From an uncultured Bacilli bacterium (lineage in GTDB: Bacteria; Bacillota_I; Bacilli_A; RF39; UBA660), in NCBI GenBank assembly GCA_934162195.1, contig CAKPHO010000001.1:17281-81280 (forward strand): DNA of 64,000 nt, given 5' to 3'. The first letter of the stretch is position 1. Every line of letters starts with the position of its first letter. The notes beneath the pieces are model-generated. The model saw only the letters and a list, made by a program, of their open reading frames with translations. It did no database searches and was not told the origin of the DNA. Shown here one piece after another: positions 262 through 45,695 of this stretch. Position numbers and translations under genes: made by a program.

Positions 262-2367
262 CTAATCTCCTACTTCCTTATATATATGATCTGCTATCGC
301 CTTTGCCATTAATGGCGGAACAGCATTTCCAATTTGAGTTCTAACGTGAACCTTTGCACCTAAAAATACAAATTTATCATCAAACGATTGAATTCTAGCT
401 GCTTCTCTCGGTGTTATAGCTCTATGCAAAAATGGGTGATTATTTGTTCCATTTGATGCTGCATCAAATCTTGTATCTATAGTTGGTGACTCACTATCCC
501 ATTTTAATCTTCCCCATGTACCAGTAAATTGTTGTTTTCCTAACATTTCCTTTGGCAAATGTTCTTTACCACATTCTGGTGGAATCATTTCTAATTTTTT
601 TATTGCCACCTCTGCGTGATTAGAAGCTTTATGATTATAAAGTTTGTTACAATTTTCCCTCATAATTTTTTGATACTCACTGGTTGGTTCTGTAATATAA
701 TCTTGTTCAAACTCACCTTCGCTAGAATTCAAATATGCAAGATCATAAATTGCATCTCTTACTGTTGTTTTCTTTGCTACGGTCGATTTTGGCAAAGTAA
801 TTTTTTTATGTTTTGAACAAATAAATATAGCTCTTTGTCGAGACTGAGGAACCCCAAAATCAGATGCGGTCAAAACTCCACACTCAACATAATATCCCAT
901 TTCTTTTACTTTATTTATTATCTCTTCTTTAAACCATCCTGCTGATGTTGATAATAATGCTTTAACATTTTCTATTACAAAAACTTCAGGGTTAATTGCT
1001 TCAACAAAATTTAAATATTCTTTAAAAAGAAAATTTCTAGGATCATCCAAACCAAGTTTTTTTCCTTTTAAAGAAAAACCTTGACAAGGGGGACCGCCAA
1101 TAATCATATTAACTTTCTTTTCTTTACTCAATTTAATTACTTCTTGTTTTATTTTATCATCAGTAATATCACCCACAACGGTTGTTGTTTGAGGCATATT
1201 ATATTTAAAAGTCATTAATGCTTTTTCATCAAAATCAAGTGCAACCGCAGTTTTAAAATGTTTATTTTTTTCCATTCCATATGAAAAACCACCAGCACCA
1301 CTAAATAAATCTAATATTATAAATTCTTTAACTTTATTTTCAAGAGGTCTTCTTCTAATTAAAATTCTTTTATAAATCTCTTTTCCATTTATTATAGGTT
1401 TAAACAAGTCATATTCATTATCAGAACCATGATTTGCTTCGCCAACTATCTCAAACTGTTTACTATTGTATCTATTTATAATTGTTATAGGCACACCCAT
1501 AATCCCGTAGTAATCATACGGAATATCGTTTATCGTTCTGACATTAATTGCATCATAATTATCATATTTTGGATAATCTATTTCATTATATCTTTTTGTT
1601 AATATAATTTCTCTATGTCTTCGCTCATTATCAATATTTGTAAGCCACATAGCATTACCTAAACTTCTCCATTTTTGTCCGGTTTCATCTACCCAATATC
1701 TTGTTGTTTTTGGTTCGGACGATGCAGGAACTCTAAATTTCATTTCACCAAATTGATATCCTGTCCATACCTTATCATTTTTTATTAACGGAAATATTTC
1801 TTTGTACGTTAAAGCATTTTGATTACCCACAATTAAGAACTTTTTTTTGTGCTTCATGATAAGAGCAACAAATTCTTTAAATAATGAAAAAGGTGGATTA
1901 GTAACAACTATGTCACATTCTTTTAAATATTCCACACATTCATCACTTTGAAAATCCCCTTTTCCATTTAATTTTTTAATGCATTTTGAATTCAAAAGAA
2001 ATTTATTAATCTCATCATCTGTTATAACTCCAGCTTCTTCGCTAAATTTTATAACATCTAAAACATAACCATTTTTTTTGGACAATTTATTATTATTTTG
2101 ATCTAAAAGTCTTAATTCTGTTGATAACATTTTTGAAGAAGCAAAAGATGTACATATTAATCTTTTTAAACTTAATACATTAAAATTCCTTAAAAAAAAC
2201 TTACAAAAATTAGATTCAAATGGGTCATCACAATTACAAAGAACTATTTTATTTTTAAAACTGGATTTATAATGCGAAATTTCTTTTTCTATATCTTCAT
2301 ATCTAGTATAGAATTCATCATTTTTACACAATTTTGCTTTTTGTAAGTTTGTATTTTTATTACCCAT
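262..2367 (-). CDS. bifunctional DNA methyltransferase: N-terminal EcoRI-like N6-adenine MTase module fused to a C-terminal cytosine-C5 (Dcm-type) MTase module
   Basis: 701 aa. The N-terminal half has DEFYTRYEDIEKEI, CNCDDPFESNF and VVTNPPFSLFKEF (NPPF catalytic motif). The C-terminal half has the full ordered C5-MTase motif set: DLFSGAGGFSYG (I), GGPPCQGFS (IV), ENV (VI), QSRQR (VIII), TPREAARIQSF (IX), GNAVPP (X). The junction is near residue 345 (about nt 1335). Confidence 0.85.
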   Translation of the reverse strand: MGNKNTNLQKAKLCKNDEFYTRYEDIEKEISHYKSSFKNKIVLCNCDDPFESNFCKFFLRNFNVLSLKRLICTSFASSKMLSTELRLLDQNNNKLSKKNGYVLDVIKFSEEAGVITDDEINKFLLNSKCIKKLNGKGDFQSDECVEYLKECDIVVTNPPFSLFKEFVALIMKHKKKFLIVGNQNALTYKEIFPLIKNDKVWTGYQFGEMKFRVPASSEPKTTRYWVDETGQKWRSLGNAMWLTNIDNERRHREIILTKRYNEIDYPKYDNYDAINVRTINDIPYDYYGIMGVPITIINRYNSKQFEIVGEANHGSDNEYDLFKPIINGKEIYKRILIRRRPLENKVKEFIILDLFSGAGGFSYGMEKNKHFKTAVALDFDEKALMTFKYNMPQTTTVVGDITDDKIKQEVIKLSKEKKVNMIIGGPPCQGFSLKGKKLGLDDPRNFLFKEYLNFVEAINPEVFVIENVKALLSTSAGWFKEEIINKVKEMGYYVECGVLTASDFGVPQSRQRAIFICSKHKKITLPKSTVAKKTTVRDAIYDLAYLNSSEGEFEQDYITEPTSEYQKIMRENCNKLYNHKASNHAEVAIKKLEMIPPECGKEHLPKEMLGKQQFTGTWGRLKWDSESPTIDTRFDAASNGTNNHPFLHRAITPREAARIQSFDDKFVFLGAKVHVRTQIGNAVPPLMAKAIADHIYKEVGD

Positions 2368-2507
2368 TTTATCACCACCAATTTTAAAGTATGTCTTTTT
2401 TTAATTATACCATGAATTTCGACATTTTTTGTTTTTTGCTGCTATTTTTTTACAGAAAGTCTAATTTATAACAAAAAAATAAAAGAGATTAATCTTTTAT
2501 TCAACAT

Positions 2508-3420
2508 TTATAATTCTTTAGGACAATTAAGTTTATATTTAACATCATTAAATCCATATACCTTTTTACAATCATGACAGATAACTGCTATAAAATCAGC
2601 ACCCTTAATTCTATGTCCATCACCCTTTTGTATTAAAATATTTTTAGAATTACATTTAGGACAAAATATATCTTTTCTCATCACTTCATCTTGACTATAA
2701 GCATTCCTTATTATTTCATAACCATTTCTATCATATCTAGGATAAAATTCATCTTTATTAAATACTTTAATTCTTCCAAACATAAACTCTAATTTATCAA
2801 TTTGTTTTTCAGTATGATAATGTCCACAATACCATTTATCATAATTTATAGATTGCTCTACTTTATCTAAAAATCTTTCCATACTTTTATCTATATCAGA
2901 TTGATCGATACCTTTCATAAATAGTTCAGTAGGTTCATATTTTAATGGACAAGTATGTGGTAAAACAATATCAATATGTTGTCCTTTATATTTATTTAAA
3001 ATATTATCCATTTCTTTTTTGCTAAGTTGTTCATCTTTAAACCATGGATACCCATATATTATTCTATAATTTTTATCAACGGAATAAGCACCACCAATGA
3101 CTAATACTTTTTATTGCCTACATTATACAATTCACCATTTTTAGTAAATATTAAATTTGAATATTCTTATTCAATAAATACTTTACCACCAAACATATCA
3201 ATTTCTTTATATGTTGATATATTTTTTTTCTTTCTTCATGATTAACTTGAACACAAAATAATTTTATATTATAACTATTTAATTATTTTTTTAATTTACT
3301 ATCTCTTCCATATAAATAATGATTAATTCCAGCATCACCTAATATAATTAACATATTATTTTTTTCTATATCATTTAATCTATAAAATTCTCTATGTGTA
3401 TCTCCCATTATATAAATCAT
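2508..3420 (-). pseudogene. metallophosphoesterase (calcineurin-like / phage-type phosphatase) with C-terminal zinc ribbon, disrupted
   Basis: The N-terminal fragment reads MIYIMGDTHREF...LIILGDAGIN (motifs I/II) and ends at an in-frame TAA (3285-3283). Reading on in the same frame gives ...FCVQVNHEER (a degenerate GNHE motif) and then another stop. A different frame carries VIGGAYSVDKNYRIIYGYPWFKDEQLS and joins the 167-aa ORF, which contains WYCGHYHTEK (GHxH motif) and CPKC...CHDC. At least one nonsense mutation plus a frameshift are present. Confidence 0.7.
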
Positions 3421-3437
3421 ATTATCACCACTAAACA

Positions 3438-4874
3438 TTATCTGTGTGAAGCTGATTCTCTTTTTATACAATCCACATCTTTTATAAAAATATTGTATTT
3501 CTCAGTATATTGTGACGCTTTTTTATTTAATGCGTTAATTTTATCAATATCACTTTCTTTATTAATAAAAACCACCAAATATGCCTCTTTACACTCTTCT
3601 TGTTTTAGATAAGTATGAATTTGTTTATTTTCGTCTACACACTCTAATAATTTAGGATTACTAGAAATTTTATTTTCTATTAATACTTTATCATCACCTC
3701 TTGAAATTTTAAAATCTACTGGACCATTGCCAGCATTCGTTTCAGGAGATATATCCACATTAAAACCTGCGTCTTTTATTCTAGCATCAAAAAGTATATG
3801 AACAAACTTTGATATTTTAGGTTCTGAAATAAATCTATTACCATTTGATAGTAAGAACACATATCCTTTTTTATCAGTAATAATCATTTGAAGATATTTT
3901 ATCAATAATTCTGCGACCATTTTTACTGGCATAGTTGAGTTGTCTTTTTTTGTTTCCAAAAGAAAATTTTTATTATCTTTGTAAAATTGATTTGCCAATT
4001 CATATATATTATTTACATTTTCCTTGTCTTCAGATAAATCGTATGCTGTATATTCTTTACCATCGTTTGAGAATTTTCTCAAAACCTCGTCTCTATTATT
4101 TTCTATAATATCTTGCATTATTTTTTTCTTGTTAGCGACAATATCTGATTTCAAATTGTAATCAAAAACATCTTTAACATAATCTATATTATTATGATAA
4201 ATCCAAGTCATAAAATTATCTTCATCAAAATATAGTGTAGTTACTAAAAATTCTTTTGGAATTAATAAAACAGGAATTTCCTTACCATTTTCGTCAATAA
4301 TATATGGGATATCAGTTAGTCCATACTCCCAACGCATTTCATTGAAATTATATTCTTGCTTTAAATTAAATTTCTTAATAGGAAAATTATTTTCTTGTGC
4401 TATTCTACAACTATAAATAATAAAATCATTTTTTATAATGTTAAGTATCATATCTGTAATTCTATCTCCATTGACATTTTTATCAAATAAAGATATTTCA
4501 GCAAAATCTTCTATCCCAAATAATCCTTTTTTAGTAAATTTATTTATATTATGCAAAACAGATAGCGCTGTTTTACCAGTTAATCCACTACCAACATTAC
4601 TATCATATGAAAAACCTAAATTGGCTTCTTTGACTTCATCAAATTGAACCATATTTTCTTTTAAGTTTTTCGGTATATTTAATTCTAATTTGACTATAGC
4701 ATTTAAAAAGAAATTAATTAACTTTTTATAACTAAATTTAAACTCATTAATTGATGTGGTTTTTAATAACAAAGGATCTATAAACAATAATGTATCCCAC
4801 TCTACTTGTGGATTAAACCACTCCTCTGTTCCAATATAATTATACCCAACATATTCACTATATCTTTTTTTCAT
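3438..4874 (-). CDS. hypothetical protein with C-terminal PD-(D/E)xK nuclease-like motif
   Basis: 478-aa ORF with an RBS-like upstream sequence. The C-terminal region reads ISEPKISKFVHILFD...GPVDFKISRGDDKVLIENKISSN, which fits E...D...ExK. A GSGLTGKT string near residue 95 matches GxxxxGKT, but in atypical context. I recognise no named family. Confidence 0.55.
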   Translation of the reverse strand: MKKRYSEYVGYNYIGTEEWFNPQVEWDTLLFIDPLLLKTTSINEFKFSYKKLINFFLNAIVKLELNIPKNLKENMVQFDEVKEANLGFSYDSNVGSGLTGKTALSVLHNINKFTKKGLFGIEDFAEISLFDKNVNGDRITDMILNIIKNDFIIYSCRIAQENNFPIKKFNLKQEYNFNEMRWEYGLTDIPYIIDENGKEIPVLLIPKEFLVTTLYFDEDNFMTWIYHNNIDYVKDVFDYNLKSDIVANKKKIMQDIIENNRDEVLRKFSNDGKEYTAYDLSEDKENVNNIYELANQFYKDNKNFLLETKKDNSTMPVKMVAELLIKYLQMIITDKKGYVFLLSNGNRFISEPKISKFVHILFDARIKDAGFNVDISPETNAGNGPVDFKISRGDDKVLIENKISSNPKLLECVDENKQIHTYLKQEECKEAYLVVFINKESDIDKINALNKKASQYTEKYNIFIKDVDCIKRESASHR

Positions 4875-5003
4875 TATTACTTCACTTCCTTAATACAAAA
4901 AAATAAACAATATCCATCTTAAAAGATTAAATACTGCTTATCTTATATAATATATTATACCATATATTTCCACAATTTTTATATTTTTGCTAATATTTAA
5001 TAG

Positions 5004-5357
5004 TTAAAAATAGGTTTTTGCATTATTTTTTATACATTTTTTAAATTTTAATATCCTAATACCCAAGCAAATTATGTAATGGTAAGTAAACTCGCCACCT
5101 CCTGCATTTATGTGATTAGATATAAGTATAACATCTTTGCTATTACCATAAGCATCTAATACCCTATTAACTCTCTCTGTAGGACTTATTGTTTCATCAG
5201 TACTTCTAATTATTTTAACAGGAACGCCTAAGCTCTTGAACCTGTCATACATATAATTTGAAATTTCCAAATTCAAATCTTTTTCAATTATATTGTTTCC
5301 ACTAGAACCAGGATCATCACCACCATGACCAGCATCTATAACTATTTTATAATCCAT
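5004..5357 (-). pseudogene. N-acetylmuramoyl-L-alanine amidase (Amidase_3) remnant, 3'-truncated
   Basis: MDYKIVIDAGHGGDDPGSSGNN...LISNHINAGGGE matches the first two-thirds of an Amidase_3 catalytic domain. The last ~30 aa (FTYHYIICLGIRILKFKKCIKNNAKTYF) look like non-native read-out, and nothing coding follows. ATG at 5357 follows an AGGTGA RBS. Confidence 0.6.
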
Positions 5358-5401
5358 AATAATCACCTAAAGTATTGTATGATAAATAACTAATTAAGTG
5401 A

Positions 5402-6022
5402 TTATTCATGAATCTTTTTCATAAGTAAATTAACATCTGTTATAGTAACATTAGAATCATTCTCATCACCAAATACTCCAGCTAAAGCCTGTAAATTAGT
5501 AATATTTTCAAATCTAAAAACTATTGATTGAGAAAAATGCATCTGCTTTCCATTTGAAGCAAGTAATTCAAAAGTTAAATCTTTAATAGCAGACCCTTCA
5601 TCAGTTTGAAGATAAAATGTGCCACCATGTGTAGCATCTACACCTTTTATTAAACCAGAAAATGTAATTTCATATATACCCGGTTGAACCTCAATATCAT
5701 TATCTTCTAGCAAATTAAAGTAACTAGATGGATTAGGTATAATCCATGGATCTTGAAGTGTCATTTTACCTGTTTTTGTTGTTTCTACAAATCCTGTAGA
5801 CATTAAACCTTCATTTGCAGATGGTGTTGTTGGACCTTCTGGGCCTATATCACCTTTTTCACCTTTATCTCCCTTTTCTCCTTTTTCACCAGGTATTCCT
5901 TGAGGACCTATATCACCTTTAGGGCCTGTTGGTCCAACTGTCGTAAGACAAATACCTAAATTTAATAATTTATTTCTTAATTTTAATCTCTTTTCTAGTT
6001 CTTGATATTTTTGACAATCCAT
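5402..6022 (-). CDS. collagen-like triple-helix repeat protein with globular C-terminal domain (BclA / phage fibre-like)
   Basis: 12 uninterrupted G-X-Y triplets (GPTGPKGDIGPQGIPGEKGEKGDKGEKGDIGPEGPT) are followed by a ~130-aa beta-rich C-terminal domain. The likely start is MDCQKY at 6022, preceded by GAGGAGG. The ORF-track start at 6085 looks like an over-extension. Confidence 0.75.
   Translation of the reverse strand: MDCQKYQELEKRLKLRNKLLNLGICLTTVGPTGPKGDIGPQGIPGEKGEKGDKGEKGDIGPEGPTTPSANEGLMSTGFVETTKTGKMTLQDPWIIPNPSSYFNLLEDNDIEVQPGIYEITFSGLIKGVDATHGGTFYLQTDEGSAIKDLTFELLASNGKQMHFSQSIVFRFENITNLQALAGVFGDENDSNVTITDVNLLMKKIHE
5828..5935 (-). repeat. GXY collagen triplet repeat coding region (about 36 codons)
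   Basis: A 9-nt-periodic GGN-NNN-NNN pattern is visible on the reverse strand inside the collagen-like CDS. Confidence 0.8.
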
Positions 6023-6107
6023 AAAATACCTCCTCACCATAATATATGGTGGAAAATGCTTGTTGACTAAACATATCACTAACAAAAAAGAATAAAGTAA
6101 CCAAACT

Positions 6108-7205
6108 TTATTCTCCTACAGCCTTATTTAGCTTAACACTAATTTCTTCTATTTTTTTATTTCTATAAACTGTCATTTTTACAGTATCTCCAACAGTATA
6201 CTTATACAATATATATTTTAAATGTGCTCCATCAGAGATTTCATTATTTTCAATTTTTAAAATAACATCACCCTTTTGTAATCCAGCAGCAGATGCAGGC
6301 GTATCATTTTGAACATTAACTACTACAACACCTTTATCTATATCTTCATCAAGTAAAATGTTGTTACGATATAAAGCATAGGTATTATCAGCATCTAATG
6401 TTTCAACACCTAATATAGGTCTTACTATAGCTTCGCCTTTTTCTAATCTATCAACAGAAGTCATAACAAGCTCAATAGGTATTGCAAATCCCATACCTTC
6501 TATTGTGTCTTTTACTAATTTTAAAGAGTTAACCCCAATTACTTCGCCATTAATATTACATATTGGTCCACCACTATTACCAGGGTTTATAGCTGCATCT
6601 GTTTGCAAAACTTGCATTACATAAGCACTACCATTATCTAAGCTAACATCTACAGTTCTATCTTTTCCTGATAAAATTCCTTTTGTAACAGTTCCCATAT
6701 ATTCCGTACCTACAGGTGTTCCTACAGTAAATACAGTATCTCCAATACTTGCATTTTCACTACTACCAATTTCTGCGACTGCTAAAACAGAACTAGCATC
6801 AATAGCAAGTACCGCAACATCTTCATATTCATCACTACCAAGTACTTTTGCTTCAACTGTCTCATTATTCATATTAACAACTTTTACTGTTGTCGCCCCA
6901 CTAATAACATGATTATTAGTTATAATATAACCAGTTTTATCATCTTTTTTATAAACAAATCCAGTACCTGTTCCAGATAGTTTACTACCTTTATAAGACT
7001 CAATAACAACTACTGCATTGTATACTTTAGATACACCCGACTTAATTGTATCACTCTCTGTAACATTTACTTCTGATATCGTTTTTTCAATAGTTTGACT
7101 ATTCATAGGAAAGTAATGAAGTGTTACCACAGTTCCTATTACACCTACAAAGAAAGCAACTATTACATATATTAATGATTTTAAATTCTCTTTTGAATAT
7201 TTCAT
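6108..7205 (-). CDS. htrA: HtrA/DegP-family serine protease (S1C) with N-terminal TM anchor and C-terminal PDZ domain
   Basis: ITNNHV (catalytic His), DVAVL (Asp) and GNSGGP (Ser) appear in order. An N-terminal hydrophobic helix and a PDZ-like LQKGDVILKIEN are present. Confidence 0.85.
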   Translation of the reverse strand: MKYSKENLKSLIYVIVAFFVGVIGTVVTLHYFPMNSQTIEKTISEVNVTESDTIKSGVSKVYNAVVVIESYKGSKLSGTGTGFVYKKDDKTGYIITNNHVISGATTVKVVNMNNETVEAKVLGSDEYEDVAVLAIDASSVLAVAEIGSSENASIGDTVFTVGTPVGTEYMGTVTKGILSGKDRTVDVSLDNGSAYVMQVLQTDAAINPGNSGGPICNINGEVIGVNSLKLVKDTIEGMGFAIPIELVMTSVDRLEKGEAIVRPILGVETLDADNTYALYRNNILLDEDIDKGVVVVNVQNDTPASAAGLQKGDVILKIENNEISDGAHLKYILYKYTVGDTVKMTVYRNKKIEEISVKLNKAVGE

Positions 7206-7215
7206 ATAGTTCCTC

Positions 7216-8148
7216 CTATTCTATATTTGTTATTTCCCTCCAATTGTTAGGAAAACCTATTTTATTTAAAATTACATCAAGTGGCACCGAATCAATCTTT
7301 CCATCTAAAAGGTCGATTTCATAACCTAATTCATTTATCAATTCTTTAAATTTATCATCATCAAGCATATACTTAAAAATTATTATTAACGCAAATAAAT
7401 CATTTTTACCATATTTATATTGGTCAACATCTTTTTCAATATTTAATCTACTATGAATTATATCATCTGGAATAACTCTTTGAGTTCTATGATCATATAA
7501 AATATCCTCATGAGCACATAAATTTCTAAAATTTGCTAGAATATTTAAATAAATAGATAAAGTTTCTGCTTCCATTCCATACTCATCCGCAATTTTAAAT
7601 TGATCATCTGGTTTTAATATGTTAAATAATTCCGAAATAATACCAAAAGACAACACTTTTACTAATACCCAAAGTGGAATATAACCATAATTACTTATAT
7701 AGTGAAGAGTTGCTGTATGTTGTTTTGTATTAACTCTAATCTGTCTTTTCATTTTATTTAAAACATCTTTTACTTGTCTAATCTTCATACTATCTTGAGT
7801 AAAATTTTTAGGATTCAAATAATCTTTTTCCTTAATACCATATTTTCTAGATAATTGATAACTAATAATAGATTTAATATTATTCTCAATAATCAATATA
7901 TACTTAAACATAATATTCCTTATATTTCTATCGAATGTAAAAGTCGCATATAATTCTTCAAAAGTTGCTCCTTTAACAAATCTTCTATCTTTGTATCCTT
8001 CCATAAATAACCAACGATACCCATTTATAAAAAAGTAATTCTCTTTAAATAGTATTTCTTTAGTTTTTTCCTCATCGTTAATAATAAGTCCTTTATTACG
8101 CATGATTTCTATTTGTTCGTCTAAAGTCTTGAATATTTTACGCTCCAT
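7216..8148 (-). CDS. Abi_2 (AbiD/AbiF-like) abortive-infection family protein
   Basis: Family-typical strings: LFKENYFFINGYR, YATFTFDRNIRNIMFKYILIIENNIKS, IPLWVLVKVLSFGIISELFNIL, LANFRNLCAHEDILYD. The likely start is MERKIF at 8148. Confidence 0.8.
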   Translation of the reverse strand: MERKIFKTLDEQIEIMRNKGLIINDEEKTKEILFKENYFFINGYRWLFMEGYKDRRFVKGATFEELYATFTFDRNIRNIMFKYILIIENNIKSIISYQLSRKYGIKEKDYLNPKNFTQDSMKIRQVKDVLNKMKRQIRVNTKQHTATLHYISNYGYIPLWVLVKVLSFGIISELFNILKPDDQFKIADEYGMEAETLSIYLNILANFRNLCAHEDILYDHRTQRVIPDDIIHSRLNIEKDVDQYKYGKNDLFALIIIFKYMLDDDKFKELINELGYEIDLLDGKIDSVPLDVILNKIGFPNNWREITNIE

Positions 8149-8221
8149 ACCATCACCATTATAATTATAACACATTGCATATGAAAAAAATATGATTTTT
8201 TTGTGGTGTTTTTGTGTAAAA

Positions 8222-40160: not shown

Positions 40161-40926
40161 TCACTTCCTTTGCTAAATTAAGGTAAGCCTCTGTCCCCCT
40201 GCTATGTGGATCATAAGCAAGTATTGGTTTCCCATGGCTTGGAGCCTCTGATAATCTTACTAGTCTAGGAATTATTGTATCATATACACGTTCTTTAAAG
40301 TAACTCTTAATATCTTCTACAACCTCTAATCCAAGATTAGTTCTATTATCAAGCATTGTTAATAAAACACCCTCAATATCTAACGTTGGATTTAAATTCT
40401 TTTGCGCTAACATAATAGTATTTAATAGTTGCATAATTCCTTCCAATGCAAAGAATTCACATTGTACAGGAATAATAACTGAATTAGCAGCTGTTAAAGC
40501 ATTTGTTGTTAAAAGACCCAAACTAGGAGGGCAATCAATTATAATATAATCAAACATTTCTTTAGCTTGATCTAAATACTTTTTAAGTTGATTACCTTTA
40601 ACAAAGCCAGGTTCCTGTCTACTCTTTTCCATTAACTCAATATCAGCACCTGCCAAATTGATAGTCGCTGGCATAACGTATAGATTTTTAAATTTAGTTT
40701 TAACAATCACTTCACTTAAAGTAGCATTATCAATAAGTAAATCATATACACTTTTTTTGATCTCACTTTTATCTATTCCAATACCAGTAGTACTATTACC
40801 TTGTGGATCTAAGTCTACTAATAGTACTCTTTTTTTTAATACACCTAAAGATGCTGCTAAATTAATACTAGAAGTAGTTTTGCCTACTCCTCCCTTTTGA
40901 TTAACTAAGGCAATAACCTTACCCAT
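40141..40926 (-). CDS. parA: chromosome partitioning ATPase ParA/Soj
   Basis: Deviant Walker A NQKGGVGKTT, LLVDLDPQGN, IIIDCPPSLG. Confidence 0.93.
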   Translation of the reverse strand: MGKVIALVNQKGGVGKTTSSINLAASLGVLKKRVLLVDLDPQGNSTTGIGIDKSEIKKSVYDLLIDNATLSEVIVKTKFKNLYVMPATINLAGADIELMEKSRQEPGFVKGNQLKKYLDQAKEMFDYIIIDCPPSLGLLTTNALTAANSVIIPVQCEFFALEGIMQLLNTIMLAQKNLNPTLDIEGVLLTMLDNRTNLGLEVVEDIKSYFKERVYDTIIPRLVRLSEAPSHGKPILAYDPHSRGTEAYLNLAKEVIERNGN

Positions 40927-40994
40927 AAACATCACCATTTTCTAATACATTCTACGTATAACTATTTTATCACACTTACAACCATAAATCTATA

Positions 40995-41834
40995 TTATAT
41001 TTTTATTTGATTCTTATTTTCTAATTTTTTATTTTCTTTTTCTATCTCTTTTAAACTTTTGTTTGGTGTTGGTAAGTTCTCTGGCAATGTCCCACCATTC
41101 TTTACGATAACTTCTCTAATATTTCTACCAATTGTATAATGCGTGTCACTAGCTATTATTTCTGTTTTCACATTATCTTTTTTTAGTTTAGCTTCTGTTT
41201 GTGATATTCTAAATAGATTTGCTACTAGTTCTTCACTTCCCATATTATCTAATATATCTTCTCAATATCTCAAACCTTTTCTTTTAGCTATATCATTAGC
41301 AGTTTCTCCATTATAAAGCCCCTTATAACCACAAATATGAAACTTGTCAAAATTCTTAACGCCACAATTTCTAGCAGTTATATTAAGTGAATAATTACCC
41401 TTTCTTGTTAAATTTCTTTGATAAAATCTTTTCTCATCTTCTGTAAGTTCACTATACTCTTTTTCACTTAATTCTTGTTTTCTTGTTTGTATTGCAAAAT
41501 AAGTTTGACCTAACGAAATAACTTTTTTTCTAGAATCACCATTTTGTACAATTAAATAACACGCATATCTTGATAATTTATAATCTAACACACTTCTTTT
41601 AGCTCCTTTGGCAAGGTTTATCATTTTCCCGACCCCGGGAAAATGTTCCTCAACACTATAACCACTATTTTCACATGATTTTTTTGCATTATTAATAGCA
41701 TTAGAAAATCTTTCCCATTTACTATATTCAAGTAATGGCATCAACTCCCTTGCTTCCCAATATTCCCTTCCGTTTTCATCTATATGTTTTATTTCTTCAA
41801 ATATCTTTTCTGTATACTCTTTTACTTCATTCAT
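40995..41834 (-). pseudogene. dinD: DNA damage-inducible protein D (DinD-like), interrupted by one in-frame TGA
   Basis: The two track ORFs (41262..41849 and 40995..41243) are in the same frame. They are separated only by TGA (41264-41262) plus 6 sense codons: ...AKRKGLRY*EDILDNMGSEELVANLFRISQTE... Joined, they give a ~279-aa protein of the DinD type. Confidence 0.65.
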
Positions 41835-41891
41835 ATTTAACCTCCTCACTTATATAATTCAACATAACTTTCTTATTTCCTTTTTAATATC

Positions 41892-41921
41892 AAAAAAATC
41901 ATAGAAATTTGTTTCTATGAT
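41892..41921 (-). terminator. rho-independent terminator downstream of the TR-like element
   Basis: Reverse strand reads ATCATAGAAA-CAAA-TTTCTATGAT (10-bp perfect stem) followed by TTTTTTT. Confidence 0.6.
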
Positions 41922-42001
41922 TTAATATTTAAATATCTTTCTAGTTTCCTAAACCATTCTTTATACGCCTTAACATATAAAACAAGGCCCCCTTAGGAAA
42001 T

Positions 42002-42101
42002 CTGGGCGGACACCGTTGTTGTTCGAATCATCAACGTTATTGTTGTTGACGTTGCCGTTGTAGTTCACGTTCCAAGCATTGTTAGAGTTGTCGGCACGAG
42101 A
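42002..42101 (-). repeat. non-coding, AAC-rich DGR template-repeat-like (TR-like) copy of the 3' end of the upstream pilin-like gene
   Basis: The 100-nt ungapped match to 42372-42471 is 66/100 identical by hand count. Read on the reverse strand in the VR frame it contains 12 AAC and 2 AAT codons in 33 codons. The frame is closed by TAG two codons upstream. It is far more GC-rich than the flanks. Confidence 0.65.
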
Positions 42102-42187
42102 TAACTAACTATAAAAACAGCATGACATTAACAGCATTATCCCAATTATAAAATGTTATTAACATTCATAATCAAAATTTATAAGTA

Positions 42188-42246
42188 GCCGATTTGAAAA
42201 ATCAAATCGGCCATCATCTTAACGGCAAAAACTAAAGATTTTTGCC
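42188..42246. other. two strong hairpins between the VR-like and TR-like elements
   Basis: GCCGATTTGA-AAAA-TCAAATCGGC (42188-42211; 10-bp stem, 4-nt loop) and GGCAAAAA-CTAAAGA-TTTTTGCC (42224-42246). Neither is followed by a clean T-run on the minus strand. Confidence 0.5.
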
Positions 42247-42339
42247 TATTACAAGCCGACAAGTTCGACTTGCTTCTTATGAATTTTATTTTTTTCTTCT
42301 TTTTAATTATTTTCTTCAACTATGTCTTCTAATTCTTTA

Positions 42340-43533
42340 TTATGAGAGTTTAGATTTTAAGACAGTTATAACTGGGCGAACGCCATAGGTGTCCGGATTG
42401 AGAACGCCGGTGCTGCTAACGTAGCCTTCGTAATCCACTTGCCAAGCGATGCTAGAACGCGCAGCACGAGAAGATGCTGTCCAATATCCACATGTAAATT
42501 CATCTGAATTATTTAAGCATCCATATGTAGTACAATTTGTTTTTGTTCTATCATATAACCATCCATATGAACATCCAGTTGTGTTTCCTTCTTTACATGT
42601 ATCACTTTGAGAGCCTGTTTTACTTTCTAAATAATAAGAACTACTATTTTCAGCTACCTTTTCATCCCATCCTGAATAATCAGTTATTGTTGCTATTTCT
42701 TGAGCTGTTATCAATCTTGCTTTATATCCACTATAATCTATTGTATATTTTGCATTACTTGTTTCTCCTGTTTGATCCATTGTATAATTTGATGGTGTTA
42801 TCGTCCCTTGCCATCCATCTGTATCTGTTTTTAATTGGTTTAACACTTCTTTTGGACCGCTTGCATTACTTCCCCTTGAATTCCATGCAACGGTTGCTGT
42901 TGTATTATGGTCTAGTATTAAATTGACTGTATCTTTTCCATCATCATTAAAGGCATAGAATTTCATACATCTACTCTTTGTTCCTGTATTACTTTGTGTT
43001 TCTGTATAATCACTACATTTTTCTCCTGTTGTTACATTAAAATATACTACTTCTCCGTTGGTATATGTTTTTGTTGGTTGTGGTGTTGCTGGAGTTGTAT
43101 TTCCTTTCTCAGTCGCTTCATATGTTTTCTTAGTAGAATTATATGAAACAGTGTAATCTCCTATTGCCATAGTCGATGATGATTGATCAACACTTCCATT
43201 TGTTATCTTTATTTTTCCTGATGTTGGTTTTGTTCCGCTCATTTCTATTTTTATCTTCTTATCATCTGAACAACTTGCACTTTTATCTCTACATAGATTT
43301 CCATCACTTGTTATTTGATATTCGCCTTCTAGTACTTCATTTTTGCTTAGTCGTTCTTCTGCTACTGCTACTTCTACTTGTTTAACATAGCTATCCGCAC
43401 TTCTTTCAGCTGCCCCTTTCTTCGCATTCTTAATTGTATTCATTACTATTGGTGTTGCGATTAGTGCGATTATTGCTAATACTACTATTACCGCTAATAA
43501 TTCTATTAAGGTGAAAGCATTTTTTCTTTTCAT
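42340..43533 (-). CDS. prepilin-type N-terminal (class III signal) protein with C-terminal DUF1566/C-type-lectin-fold-like domain; putative DGR target
   Basis: The N-terminus is MKRKNAFTLIELLAVIVVLAIIALIATPIV (pilin methylation/cleavage motif). The C-terminus is ARLITAQEI...GYWTASSRAARSSIAWQVDYEGYVSSTGVLNPDTYGVRPVI, which fits the YWSS...AW.V...G.V...VR pattern of the Lcl/DUF1566 domains that carry DGR variable regions. Confidence 0.75.
   Translation of the reverse strand: MKRKNAFTLIELLAVIVVLAIIALIATPIVMNTIKNAKKGAAERSADSYVKQVEVAVAEERLSKNEVLEGEYQITSDGNLCRDKSASCSDDKKIKIEMSGTKPTSGKIKITNGSVDQSSSTMAIGDYTVSYNSTKKTYEATEKGNTTPATPQPTKTYTNGEVVYFNVTTGEKCSDYTETQSNTGTKSRCMKFYAFNDDGKDTVNLILDHNTTATVAWNSRGSNASGPKEVLNQLKTDTDGWQGTITPSNYTMDQTGETSNAKYTIDYSGYKARLITAQEIATITDYSGWDEKVAENSSSYYLESKTGSQSDTCKEGNTTGCSYGWLYDRTKTNCTTYGCLNNSDEFTCGYWTASSRAARSSIAWQVDYEGYVSSTGVLNPDTYGVRPVITVLKSKLS
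42372..42471 (-). repeat. DGR variable-repeat-like (VR-like) segment at the 3' end of the pilin-like gene
   Basis: By eye this is over 50% GC in a genome under 30% GC, and it is adenine-poor on the coding strand (19 A vs 33 A in the TR-like copy, hand count). Every position that is AAC in the TR-like copy holds a different codon here. Confidence 0.65.
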
Positions 43534-43565
43534 TTTAATTCCTCCTACTCTTTACTTTCTCTTAA

Positions 43566-43595
43566 ATTATACCCTCCCCCAGAAGCATTTGTCAA
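43566..43595 (-). promoter_or_regulatory. consensus sigma-A promoter of the pilin-like gene
   Basis: Reverse strand reads TTGACA-18 nt-TATAAT. The -35 box is bracketed by the inverted repeat CTCCCC...GGGGAG. Confidence 0.55.
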
Positions 43596-43727
43596 CAGGG
43601 GAGTTTATAATATTTTGATTATTTTGGAGGGTAAATTATTGGTAAATTATTTACTTAAAGTCACTTTTTATGCGATACGAGAACTTAACTTTTAACTTTC
43701 ACACTTTTTGGATCAAAAAAAGAAGAA

Positions 43728-45695
43728 CTAGTCTTCTTCTAAAGCTTTAATTAATTCTTCTTTATTTAATTTAGAATATCCTTTGATACCTTTTTCTTTA
43801 GCTAATGATTTTAAATCTGCTAAAGAAAGATCTTCTAAAGTAGCATCTTTTACTTCTTCTTCTGGCATATGACCATGTTCTACTAAATATTCAATTTGTT
43901 CTTTAGTAATTGTTTCATATTCAAGTAGAGTATTTGCTATTAAGTCAAGTAATGGTCTATTTTCTTTTAATATCTTAGTTGCTACTTCATATTGTTCACC
44001 AATAATTTTTCTAATTTCTTCATCAATTTGAAAAGCAACTTGACTAGAGAAATTTCTACTCTTATTATAATCTCTTCCTAAGAAAACGCTTGATTCTTGA
44101 TGTTCAAATTGAACTGGCCCTAAAGAACTCATTCCATATTCTGTAACCATAGCTCTTGCTATCTTAGTAGCTTTTTCAAAATCATTATGCGCACCAGTTG
44201 TAATTTCACCAAATACTAATTCTTCAGAAACACGTCCTCCTAATAAACCACTTATTGTTTCTAATAATTGATTTTTAGTTGATAAGAAGGTTTCTTCTTT
44301 TGGTAACATCAAATTATACCCACCAGCTGCACCACGAGGTACAATAGTAATTTTTTGTACATCGTTAGCACCATCAAGTTTTAATCCAATTACAGCATGA
44401 CCAGCTTCATGATAAGCAACAATTTTCTTTTCTTTATCTGTATATTTATGACTCTTTTTAGCAGGACCCATAAGTACTCTATCATGAGCTTCATCTATTT
44501 CTGCCATTGTAATAACATCTTTATTTCTTCTTACAGCAAGTAGTGCAGCTTCATTTAATAAGTTTTCTAAATCAGCACCACTAAATCCAACTGTTCTTTT
44601 TGCTATATTAGCAAGTTTTACACCTTTAGCAAATGTTTTTCCTTTGGCATGAACTTCTAATATTTCTTCTCTACCTTTAATATCAGGTAAATTAACTGTT
44701 ACTTGTCTATCAAATCTTCCAGGTCTTAAAAGCGCTGGATCTAAAACATCAGGTCTATTAGTTGCAGCTATAATGATTATTCCCTCGTTTGCTCCAAAAC
44801 CATCCATTTCAGTTAATAATTGATTTAATGTTTGCTCGCGTTCATCGTGACCTCCACCTAAGCCAGCTCCACGTTGACGTCCTACAGCATCTATCTCATC
44901 AATAAAGATTAAGCAAGGGGCAGATTGTTTAGCTTGTTTAAACATATCTCTAACACGACTAGCACCAACACCAACAAATAATTCAACAAATTCAGAACCA
45001 CTTATATAGTAGAATGGTACATTTGCTTCACCAGCAACAGCACGTGCAAGCAAAGTCTTACCTGTTCCTGGAGGACCAACTAATAATACACCCTTAGGTA
45101 TTCTAGCTCCCAATCTTTGGAATTTCTTAGGATTTTTTAAGAAATCAATAAGTTCAGCAACTTCTTCTTTTTCTTCATCTAATCCAGCAACTTCTTTAAA
45201 AGTTACTTTTCTAGCATCTTCATTTAAACGAGCTCTACTACGACCAAAATCCATTGATTTGTTAGCACTACCCATTTGTCTTGTAATTATGAAGAATGCC
45301 CCAAATATTAACAATGCTGAAGGTAAAATGTTTACTATAAAAAGTAAAACAGTACTTGAATCTGGATCTGCTACTGCATTCATCTTAAATCCTTTTTCTT
45401 GTTGTAACGTAATTACTTGACTCATTACTTCATCAGAATAAGGTGTTCTAATTAAGAATGATTCATTTTCCTTATACCCTTCCATTGTTCCTTTTAATTC
45501 ATATAAGCCTGCATTACTACGAGGAACAATTACTATTTCAGTAATTTTCCCTTCTTTAGCAGAATTTATAAATTCATCATATGTAAGTATATTTATTTTT
45601 TGATTAGCAATATTAAAGAAGTACATAATTCCTAAAATTGCAATTACTAAAAATAAATATGGTAATAAACCTTTTTTTAGTGTTTTTTTATTCAT
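43728..45695 (-). CDS. ftsH: ATP-dependent zinc metalloprotease FtsH with C-terminal Rho_N/SAP-like tail
   Basis: [18 protein letters not shown] region, and HEAGHA zinc motif. ATG 45695 follows an AAGGAAG RBS. The tail reads [33 protein letters not shown]. Confidence 0.95.

Follow-up and report, generated by a model that had tools for sequence, protein, structure and literature searches.

The stretch of DNA analysed here, in the following called the window, comprises 64,000 nucleotides of an uncultured Bacilli bacterium (GenBank assembly GCA_934162195.1, contig CAKPHO010000001.1, positions 17,281 to 81,280). On its minus strand it carries an open reading frame (ORF) for a 397-aa modular type IV pilin-like protein (42340..43533), recognized by a prepilin N-terminus of family PF07963. 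The 3' end of this gene, corresponding to residues 355-387 of 397, is one half of a repeat pair, which is a genuine template/variable repeat of a diversity-generating retroelement (DGR) with the pilin-like gene as its target. The variable repeat (VR, 42372..42471, minus strand) encodes SRAARSSIAWQVDYEGYVSSTGVLNPDTYGVRP. The template repeat (TR, 42002..42101, minus strand) lies downstream of the gene, is non-coding and contains 33 adenines with 12 AAC and 2 AAT codons. Read from 42101 to 42002 and from 42471 to 42372, both repeats align without gaps with an identity of 66/100, as a preliminary description made from the sequence alone had proposed. The homology sets in exactly with TCTCGTGC and stops with CGCCCAG. 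In the whole window the VR was the sole match to the TR detected by blastn (E = 2.5e-9; next-best E > 0.8).

The two repeats differ at 18 of the 33 template adenines versus 16 of the 67 non-adenine positions. These counts, made by hand in the preliminary description, were reproduced exactly, and the enrichment of substitutions at template adenines, which had been set there as a test, was significant (Fisher p = 0.0034). All 12 AAC codons of the TR are replaced by other codons in the VR, as described before, and the same holds for both AAT codons. The residues S-R-A..S..AW.V.Y.G.V....V......GVRP are common to both repeats, in agreement with the scaffold listed earlier. The location of the TR outside any ORF could also be confirmed: in-frame stop codons are found two codons upstream (TAG) and 11 codons downstream (TAA), and no ORF of at least 50 aa covers the repeat. 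Asparagine is encoded in the TR by AAC and AAT at a ratio of 12:2, versus 30:205 in seven housekeeping genes of the window (binomial p = 1.3e-9). The genome prefers AAT by 7:1, opposite to the preference of the TR for AAC. With 48% G+C for the TR and 58% for the VR in a window of 28.5% G+C, both repeats count as G+C islands.

VR and TR of DGRs commonly differ at a G+C-rich 3' end, termed IMH (initiation of mutagenic homing) in the VR and IMH* in the TR; the IMH is the site directing cDNA homing. The VR examined here has a G+C-rich 3' end (GGCGTTCGCCCAG; 42372..42384, minus strand), beyond which VR and TR diverge, and by its position this segment would be the IMH. Two of the TR/VR mismatches are located in it, and GGNGTNCGYCCAGTTATA is common to all paralogous targets at this end. 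A scan against Rfam of positions 40500-44000 revealed nothing relevant.

The distribution of variability among related proteins follows the adenines of the TR. The C-termini of 120 homologues show a hypervariable stretch enclosed by two nearly invariant flanks, GYWTASSRA and GVRPVITVLKSKLS. In an alignment of 61 homologues, 18 codons correspond to codons of the window TR whose first or second base is adenine. Their mean entropy was 3.07 bits, versus 0.72 bits for the 15 others. Both sets were fully separated, each of the 18 codons being more variable than each of the 15 (Mann-Whitney p = 6e-7).

Intact relatives of the element were identified in other genomes. A pattern derived from the TR detected nine AAC-rich TR-like modules in metagenome-assembled genomes labelled Bacilli, Clostridia or Muribaculaceae. 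A reverse transcriptase (RT)-like ORF adjoins seven of the nine, and five also show a target ORF with matching C-terminal repeat as well as ORFs with the sizes of Avd (accessory variability determinant) and of a MutS-like protein (MSL). With the RT of one module as query 2,046 homologues were obtained, two of which share a contig (L017 or L019) with close homologues of the target. In both the order of genes is TilS, FtsH, target, TR, MutS_I-like, bAvd, RVT_1 RT, Bro-N, ParA, ParB, MscS, AbgT and YchF. The MutS_I-like product has 169-173 aa, bAvd 111 aa and the RT 382-399 aa; profile matches at these orthologous loci reached E = 2e-15 for bAvd and E = 1.7e-6 for MutS_I. The orthologous TRs (L017 1580-1679, L019 8926-9025) are 83-84% identical to the window TR. 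Compared with their own VRs, mismatches were found at 19/35 adenines versus 3/65 non-adenines in L019 (p = 2.5e-8) and at 16/35 versus 6/65 in L017. The more distant L023 has the order MSL-Avd-RT-TR-target, likewise between FtsH and ParA; therefore, the DGR is ancestral to this locus. A further intact cassette with RT was found on the metagenome contig L077, which was the only real hit in a metagenome scan with a 20-mer of the TR flank; the other 57 of 58 stretches were chance matches from unrelated environments. In L022 (5798-9430) a pilin-like target with MSL-Avd-RT-TR is situated within a region resembling an integrative and conjugative element (ICE), with integrase, TraG/VirD4-like and VirB4-like genes. 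Thus, the DGR with its target module is also horizontally mobile.

Since the orthologous TR stands beside MutS-like, bAvd and RT genes, hypervariability is limited to the adenine-containing codons and the AAC bias is extreme, the repeat pair is of DGR origin, as assumed in the preliminary description.

The gene order of the window equals that of L017 and L019 minus the MutS_I-like, bAvd and RT genes. By blastn, window positions 43669-41945 correspond to L017 27-1736, and the alignment resumes at L017 3827, downstream of the RT. The junction was located at 41936..41945 (minus strand), with the sequence following the TR of L017 and L019 upstream and the sequence following their RT downstream of it. 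Missing in the window are about 2.1 kb, comprising the distal 3' flank of the TR, the MutS_I-like gene, bAvd and the RT. Searches by tblastn with the RTs of L011 and L017, with Avd and with MSL gave no match within the 64 kb, and a scan of the same 64 kb for YxDD detected motifs only in MetRS and RsmI. The direction of change points to a deletion in the window rather than an insertion in the relatives.

The TR itself is embedded in a conserved unit. Between the stop codon of the target gene and this unit, three tandem stable hairpins (42186..42273, minus strand; 42273-42251, 42246-42224 and 42213-42186) were found, with a minimum free energy of -41.5 kcal/mol (z = -4.8). They are conserved in L017 and L019, too, and probably serve the target gene as terminators or insulators; a role as target-recognition elements of the DGR may be considered as well. 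A conserved TATAAT (-10-like) hexamer was detected upstream of the TR by alignment (42145..42150, minus strand). In L009, L011 and L022 the aligned hexamer position is part of a promoter-like TTGACA-17-TAxAAT site. A sigma-70 scan called no full site for the window TR, the best -35 element being TTGATT at 42170-42175, 19 nt away; the putative TR promoter of the window is suggested by the alignment to these three loci. The leader that follows (42102..42144, minus strand) is conserved in the TR modules of the window, L009, L011, L017 and L019.

On the other side of the TR, the proximal part of a structured 3' flank is retained (41943..42003, minus strand), with the stem P1 (TTTCCTAA / TTAGGAAA) around an inner hairpin. 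Across six TR modules the pairing of P1 is kept by changes on both sides in three of eight pairs, and the stem is preserved in the window. In contrast, the window lacks the ACAAGYRYTAWTCC motif, the following hairpin and the AAATAYTATAYCRTAGAT segment, all of which are present in L009, L017, L019, L022 and L023. According to a preprint (10.1101/2023.10.23.563531), cDNA synthesis by DGRs depends on RNA segments that flank the template. Because the conserved distal flank is lost, the deletion may have disabled the template, too. A second, independent orphan TR module was observed in L009 (6500-6800; CALVVM010000050.1, uncultured Bacilli bacterium) between ezrA-like and folA/thyA genes. It consists of a promoter-like TTGACA-17-TAAAAT site, the leader, an AAC-rich TR of 85 nt and the structured 3' flank in full. 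Within 8 kb, neither RT, Avd and MSL genes nor a pilin target were found.

The history of the repeats since the last copying was examined by comparison with the orthologous TRs. Sixteen positions distinguish the window TR from the TRs of L017 and L019 alike. The VR has the state of the window TR at six of them, including the GGC of codon 16 and the T..TCG block of codons 23-26, and was hence templated by the window TR lineage. At seven positions the VR has the state of the relatives. Here it is the TR that was altered since it was last copied, so that 7 of the 16 non-adenine mismatches are accounted for. Six of the nine left over are changes from GC to AT in the VR, the direction of drift expected in a genome of 28.5% G+C. 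The pair is therefore an old copy followed by independent drift of TR and VR.

The RT-less allele was also found in two further assemblies from other metagenomes (L016 and L021), with an identical in-frame stop codon in the neighbouring Bro-N gene. L016 is identical to the window over the 6.7 kb compared, and L021 shows zero differences between 43255 and 39684 and about 1% outside this range, in the flanking genes; both have the same VR as the window. In L021 (5984-6100) the pilin allele is joined to an Rnf operon and YhcG context instead of TilS/FtsH. The differences between L021 and the window are concentrated within ~300 nt at the start of the gene (43255-43548), with a breakpoint at its 5' end (window 43450-43553). 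The conserved 5' ends of the pilin paralogues seem to be points of recombination or rearrangement. A paralogue on a Hadza metagenome contig (P0009 of L001) has a VR with 98% identity (2 mismatches in 114 nt). P0009 (L001:10001-11383) is chimeric, with a C-terminal half virtually identical to that of the window gene and a middle region larger by 63 aa, and is located between NAGPA and MurD genes, unlike the window gene. This points to shuffling of domains or to gene conversion between paralogues.

The unchanged allele agrees with a frozen VR. As a decisive proof of inactivity, however, invariance of the VR was rejected, since VRs of an RT-positive lineage are nearly invariant as well: within clusters of 90% identity only one or two differences at adenine sites were found. 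In another pilin paralogue (L002:3550-4686) the VR is AT-rich and keeps the scaffold (GCTAATGTACTTACATTTAATGCT...); it looks like a much older frozen VR. This suggests that the G+C content of a VR may date its last rewriting.

The locus is best explained as the fossil of a chromosomal DGR of the MutS-like, Avd and RT class with a frozen VR, to which we assign a probability of about 0.8. By analogy with known DGRs, the TR unit of the intact element would have been transcribed, and RT and Avd would have copied the TR RNA to cDNA with misincorporation opposite adenines. Replacement of the VR by this cDNA would rewrite about 18 codons of the ligand-binding tip of the type IV pilin-like protein. 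In the window lineage the VR was presumably last written from an earlier version of the adjacent TR. A deletion of about 2.1 kb would then have taken the MutS_I-like, Avd and RT genes together with the distal structured 3' flank of the TR, and spared the target gene, the VR, the TR and its leader. Ordinary substitutions would later have accumulated separately in TR and VR, so that the mismatches are adenine-biased, but not adenine-exclusive. A fossil TR had been one of the alternatives offered in the preliminary description for this imperfect specificity, beside a non-cognate TR and a second TR elsewhere, and is the one favoured by the loss of three genes, the truncated 3' flank and the seven mismatches due to TR drift. 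Most likely, the locus is inert and the VR a frozen allele.

Several observations weigh against this reading. The genome is visible only as 64 kb, related genomes carry further DGRs such as that in the ICE-like region of L022, and action in trans as well as on remote targets is within the reach of DGRs (Wu et al. 2018, PMC5758913). All AAC codons are still in the TR, and the proximal 3' stem is intact. Furthermore, each of the 33 window TR adenines is matched by an adenine in the TRs of L017 and L019, which have two more; the positions changed are 2/35 adenines versus 15/65 non-adenines (p = 0.03). This conservation could reflect continuing selection on the template, or just selection before the deletion. 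The invariance of the VR is weak evidence of inactivity, as the comparison with the RT-positive lineage shows. Finally, the VR still has its high G+C content; hence, judged by compositional decay, the freezing is not of ancient date.

One alternative is a split DGR which is still active, with the TR unit transcribed alone and used by RT and Avd encoded elsewhere in the genome, in a second chromosomal or an ICE-borne DGR, to diversify the VR and remote paralogues. Action in trans and on remote targets is documented (PMC5758913), the relatives have many scattered pilin-like paralogues with the same VR 3' end, the ICE-like element of L022 bears a DGR of the same family, the orphan TR of L009 has a complete 3' flank with no RT within 8 kb, and the adenines of the window TR are conserved. 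However, the 16 non-adenine mismatches, or nine after correction for TR drift, imply that the VR has long not been rewritten from the adjacent TR, and the conserved distal flank of the TR is deleted. Moreover, the VR is identical in three samples and shows only the 2 mismatches in 114 nt to the recombinant paralogue of another strain, and there is no RT in the 64 kb. We regard an active split system as unlikely. TR units of this lineage of gut Bacilli might also be autonomous transcription units which are kept with no adjacent RT and serve as extra dispersed templates for a trans-acting RT and Avd, for instance ICE-borne ones. The intact AAC codons of the window TR, the complete orphan module of L009 and the closely similar TR flank of L022 fit this idea, which we judge to be quite unlikely. 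It is very unlikely that the two repeats are a non-cognate pair, the VR having been imported by recombination or gene conversion from a paralogue written by a different TR. The pilin paralogues do recombine: P0009 has the same C-terminal half and VR behind a different middle domain, and the L021 gene is joined to a different upstream context with its breakpoint at the 5' end. Nine non-adenine mismatches are also still unexplained by TR drift. But the VR has six states specific to the window TR and not to the TRs of L017 and L019, and the leftover mismatches are mostly GC to AT, as expected from drift at 28.5% G+C. A paralogue that was itself a remote target of the same DGR would be indistinguishable from the fossil DGR preferred here.

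Two further alternatives concern the origin of the arrangement. The RT-less state would be ancestral if the relatives had gained the block of MutS-like, Avd and RT genes by insertion beside a pre-existing repeat, and the compactness of this block (about 2.1 kb) and the presence of the DGR family on mobile elements speak for it. In the absence of an RT, however, no role is known for a TR that has an AAC bias of 12:2, a conserved leader and a structured flank. The window has also lost a part of the TR flank that every other module kept, which is explained by deletion and not by insertion, and the more distant L023 has a DGR at the same locus. An ancestral RT-less state is hardly credible in view of these data. 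The probability that a decayed, ordinarily Asn-rich paralogue left the downstream copy as its tail, named in the preliminary description as a refuting observation, or that the similarity is due to chance is practically negligible. Nothing but the imperfect adenine specificity favours it. The AAC:AAT ratio of 12:2 versus 30:205 in housekeeping genes (p = 1.3e-9) rules out an ordinary Asn-rich gene tail, and the blastn match (E = 2.5e-9) stands against chance. In addition, the limits of the homology are the exact TR boundaries of intact DGRs, and the sequence upstream of the TR shows no trace of the other parts of a pilin gene.

The target protein starts with a class III (prepilin) signal and N-terminal methylation motif (MKRKNAFTLIELLAVIVVLAIIALIA; 43456..43533, minus strand). 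PF07963 matches residues 1-26 with E = 6.4e-7, and these residues are invariant across the 61 homologues. The residue before the would-be methylated Phe, at position -1, is Ala (KNA|FTLIELL), where Gly is usual in prepilins. Ala was also observed in the proteins of L017, L019 and P0009, and Gly in other paralogues. Searches of the PDB by sequence and profile gave matches confined to the N-terminal helix of pilins (best profile E = 2e-5) and none for the VR domain. The C-terminal domain with the VR (residues about 157-397; 42343..43065, minus strand) showed weak matches over its 240 aa to DUF6273 (E = 0.015) and Lcl_C/DUF1566 (E = 0.023), both sub-threshold and reaching the last profile position; the homologue P0063 attains the cut-off for DUF6273. 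This domain would be of ligand-binding type, with the VR at its end, and the C-type-lectin fold named in the preliminary description is a candidate for it. The AlphaFold2 model is unreliable here, with a predicted local distance difference test (pLDDT) score of about 31-60 for the C-terminal domain and about 31 for the VR, at a mean of 60.6; the 61-sequence alignment used as input was too shallow (70-84% identity). The target has more than 4,900 homologues. Relatives possess several paralogues each, scattered between housekeeping genes and with the same 3' end of the VR. No genes for a prepilin peptidase or pilus assembly machinery were found in the 64-kb window.

On the other side of the junction, a Bro-N / DinD-like gene (40995..41849, minus strand) is the right-hand neighbour of the DGR, conserved in the relatives. 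An in-frame TGA at 41262-41264 interrupts it, in place of an Arg codon of the L017 orthologue; this nonsense codon is the one also observed in L016 and L021. An alternative genetic code with recoded TGA was rejected, since all other ORFs are normal under table 11 and the orthologue has Arg at this codon. In L017 and L019 the Bro-N gene is tandemly duplicated, and one copy of L017 is broken. Far from the DGR locus, the region 262-8175 is likely a defence or mobile island. A gene for a fused DNA methyltransferase of 701 aa (262-2367) is followed there by an ORF of 478 aa that matches no Pfam family (3438-4874) and by genes for a protein with collagen-triple-helix repeats (5402-6085) and for an abortive-infection protein of the Abi_2 type (7216-8175).

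At this locus the enzymes are lost by a single deletion of about 2.1 kb, and template and target remain next to each other. DGR finders seeded with an RT overlook such loci; hence, frozen VRs may pass as ordinary divergent alleles. Non-adenine mismatches, drift of the TR and the residual G+C content of the VR in an AT-rich genome offer an internal clock for the time since the last rewriting. For further studies the modular type IV pilin-like proteins of uncultured gut Bacilli, a family with more than 4,900 members, DGR-templated tips, several paralogues per genome and recombination points, are a better target than the remnant in the window.

DGRs containing MSL also contain avd and were described as a class of their own (Wu et al. 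2018, PMC5758913). The loci L017, L019, L023 and L077, with MutS_I-like gene, bAvd, RVT_1 RT and AAC-rich TR, resemble the Legionella pneumophila DGR of this class. In contrast to the latter, the window is devoid of the three genes, the target is type IV pilin-like and the host belongs to the uncultured low-G+C gut Bacilli. In the prototype DGR of Bordetella phage BPP-1 (mtd-avd-TR-brt), too, the gene of a receptor-binding protein carries a TR/VR pair at its 3' end, Avd and RT are present, mutagenesis is adenine-specific, and RNA segments flanking the TR are required. This element differs from the window in being phage-borne and active, in a different gene order and in having no MSL gene.

A literature search combining DGR and pilin terms found no paper on DGR-targeted type IV pilins. 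The closest report concerns Type V pilus adhesins of human gut Bacteroides that are diversified by DGRs (bioRxiv 10.1101/2024.11.15.621889). These systems also occur in gut bacteria and vary adhesive pilus components; they belong to Type V pili of Bacteroidota, whereas the targets shown here have a type IV prepilin N-terminus and are found in Bacilli. A comparable architecture, with an N-terminal pilin module fused to a C-terminal functional (adhesion) module, is known from PilB of Streptococcus sanguinis (PMC8179133). The likeness is one of architecture only, and the available sections of that report mention no DGR or hypervariable region.

RT-less remnants of DGRs are already known in other bacteria, and the window is another member of this group. 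In isolates of Treponema denticola without RT and TR, the VRs of the target differ from the TRs of other isolates mostly at adenines, which was interpreted as a leftover of DGR loss (PMC4891356). Similarly, the target in the window keeps an adenine-biased VR without an RT. In contrast to these isolates, the window retains the TR and its leader beside the VR, and the boundaries of the deletion can be mapped. For all3226 of Nostoc/Anabaena PCC 7120, remnant TR-VR homology with no proximal RT was reported, and the authors proposed that the diversification components were removed once a variant was fixed (Vallota-Eastman et al. 2020, PMC7517822). The window resembles this case in its retained TR-VR pair with no RT gene or pseudogene. 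Phylum, target family and DGR class are different, and the deletion in the window is proven by intact orthologous loci. The particular value of the locus lies in this comparison: with a deletion that can be mapped against intact orthologues, it is a clean example of the death of a DGR.

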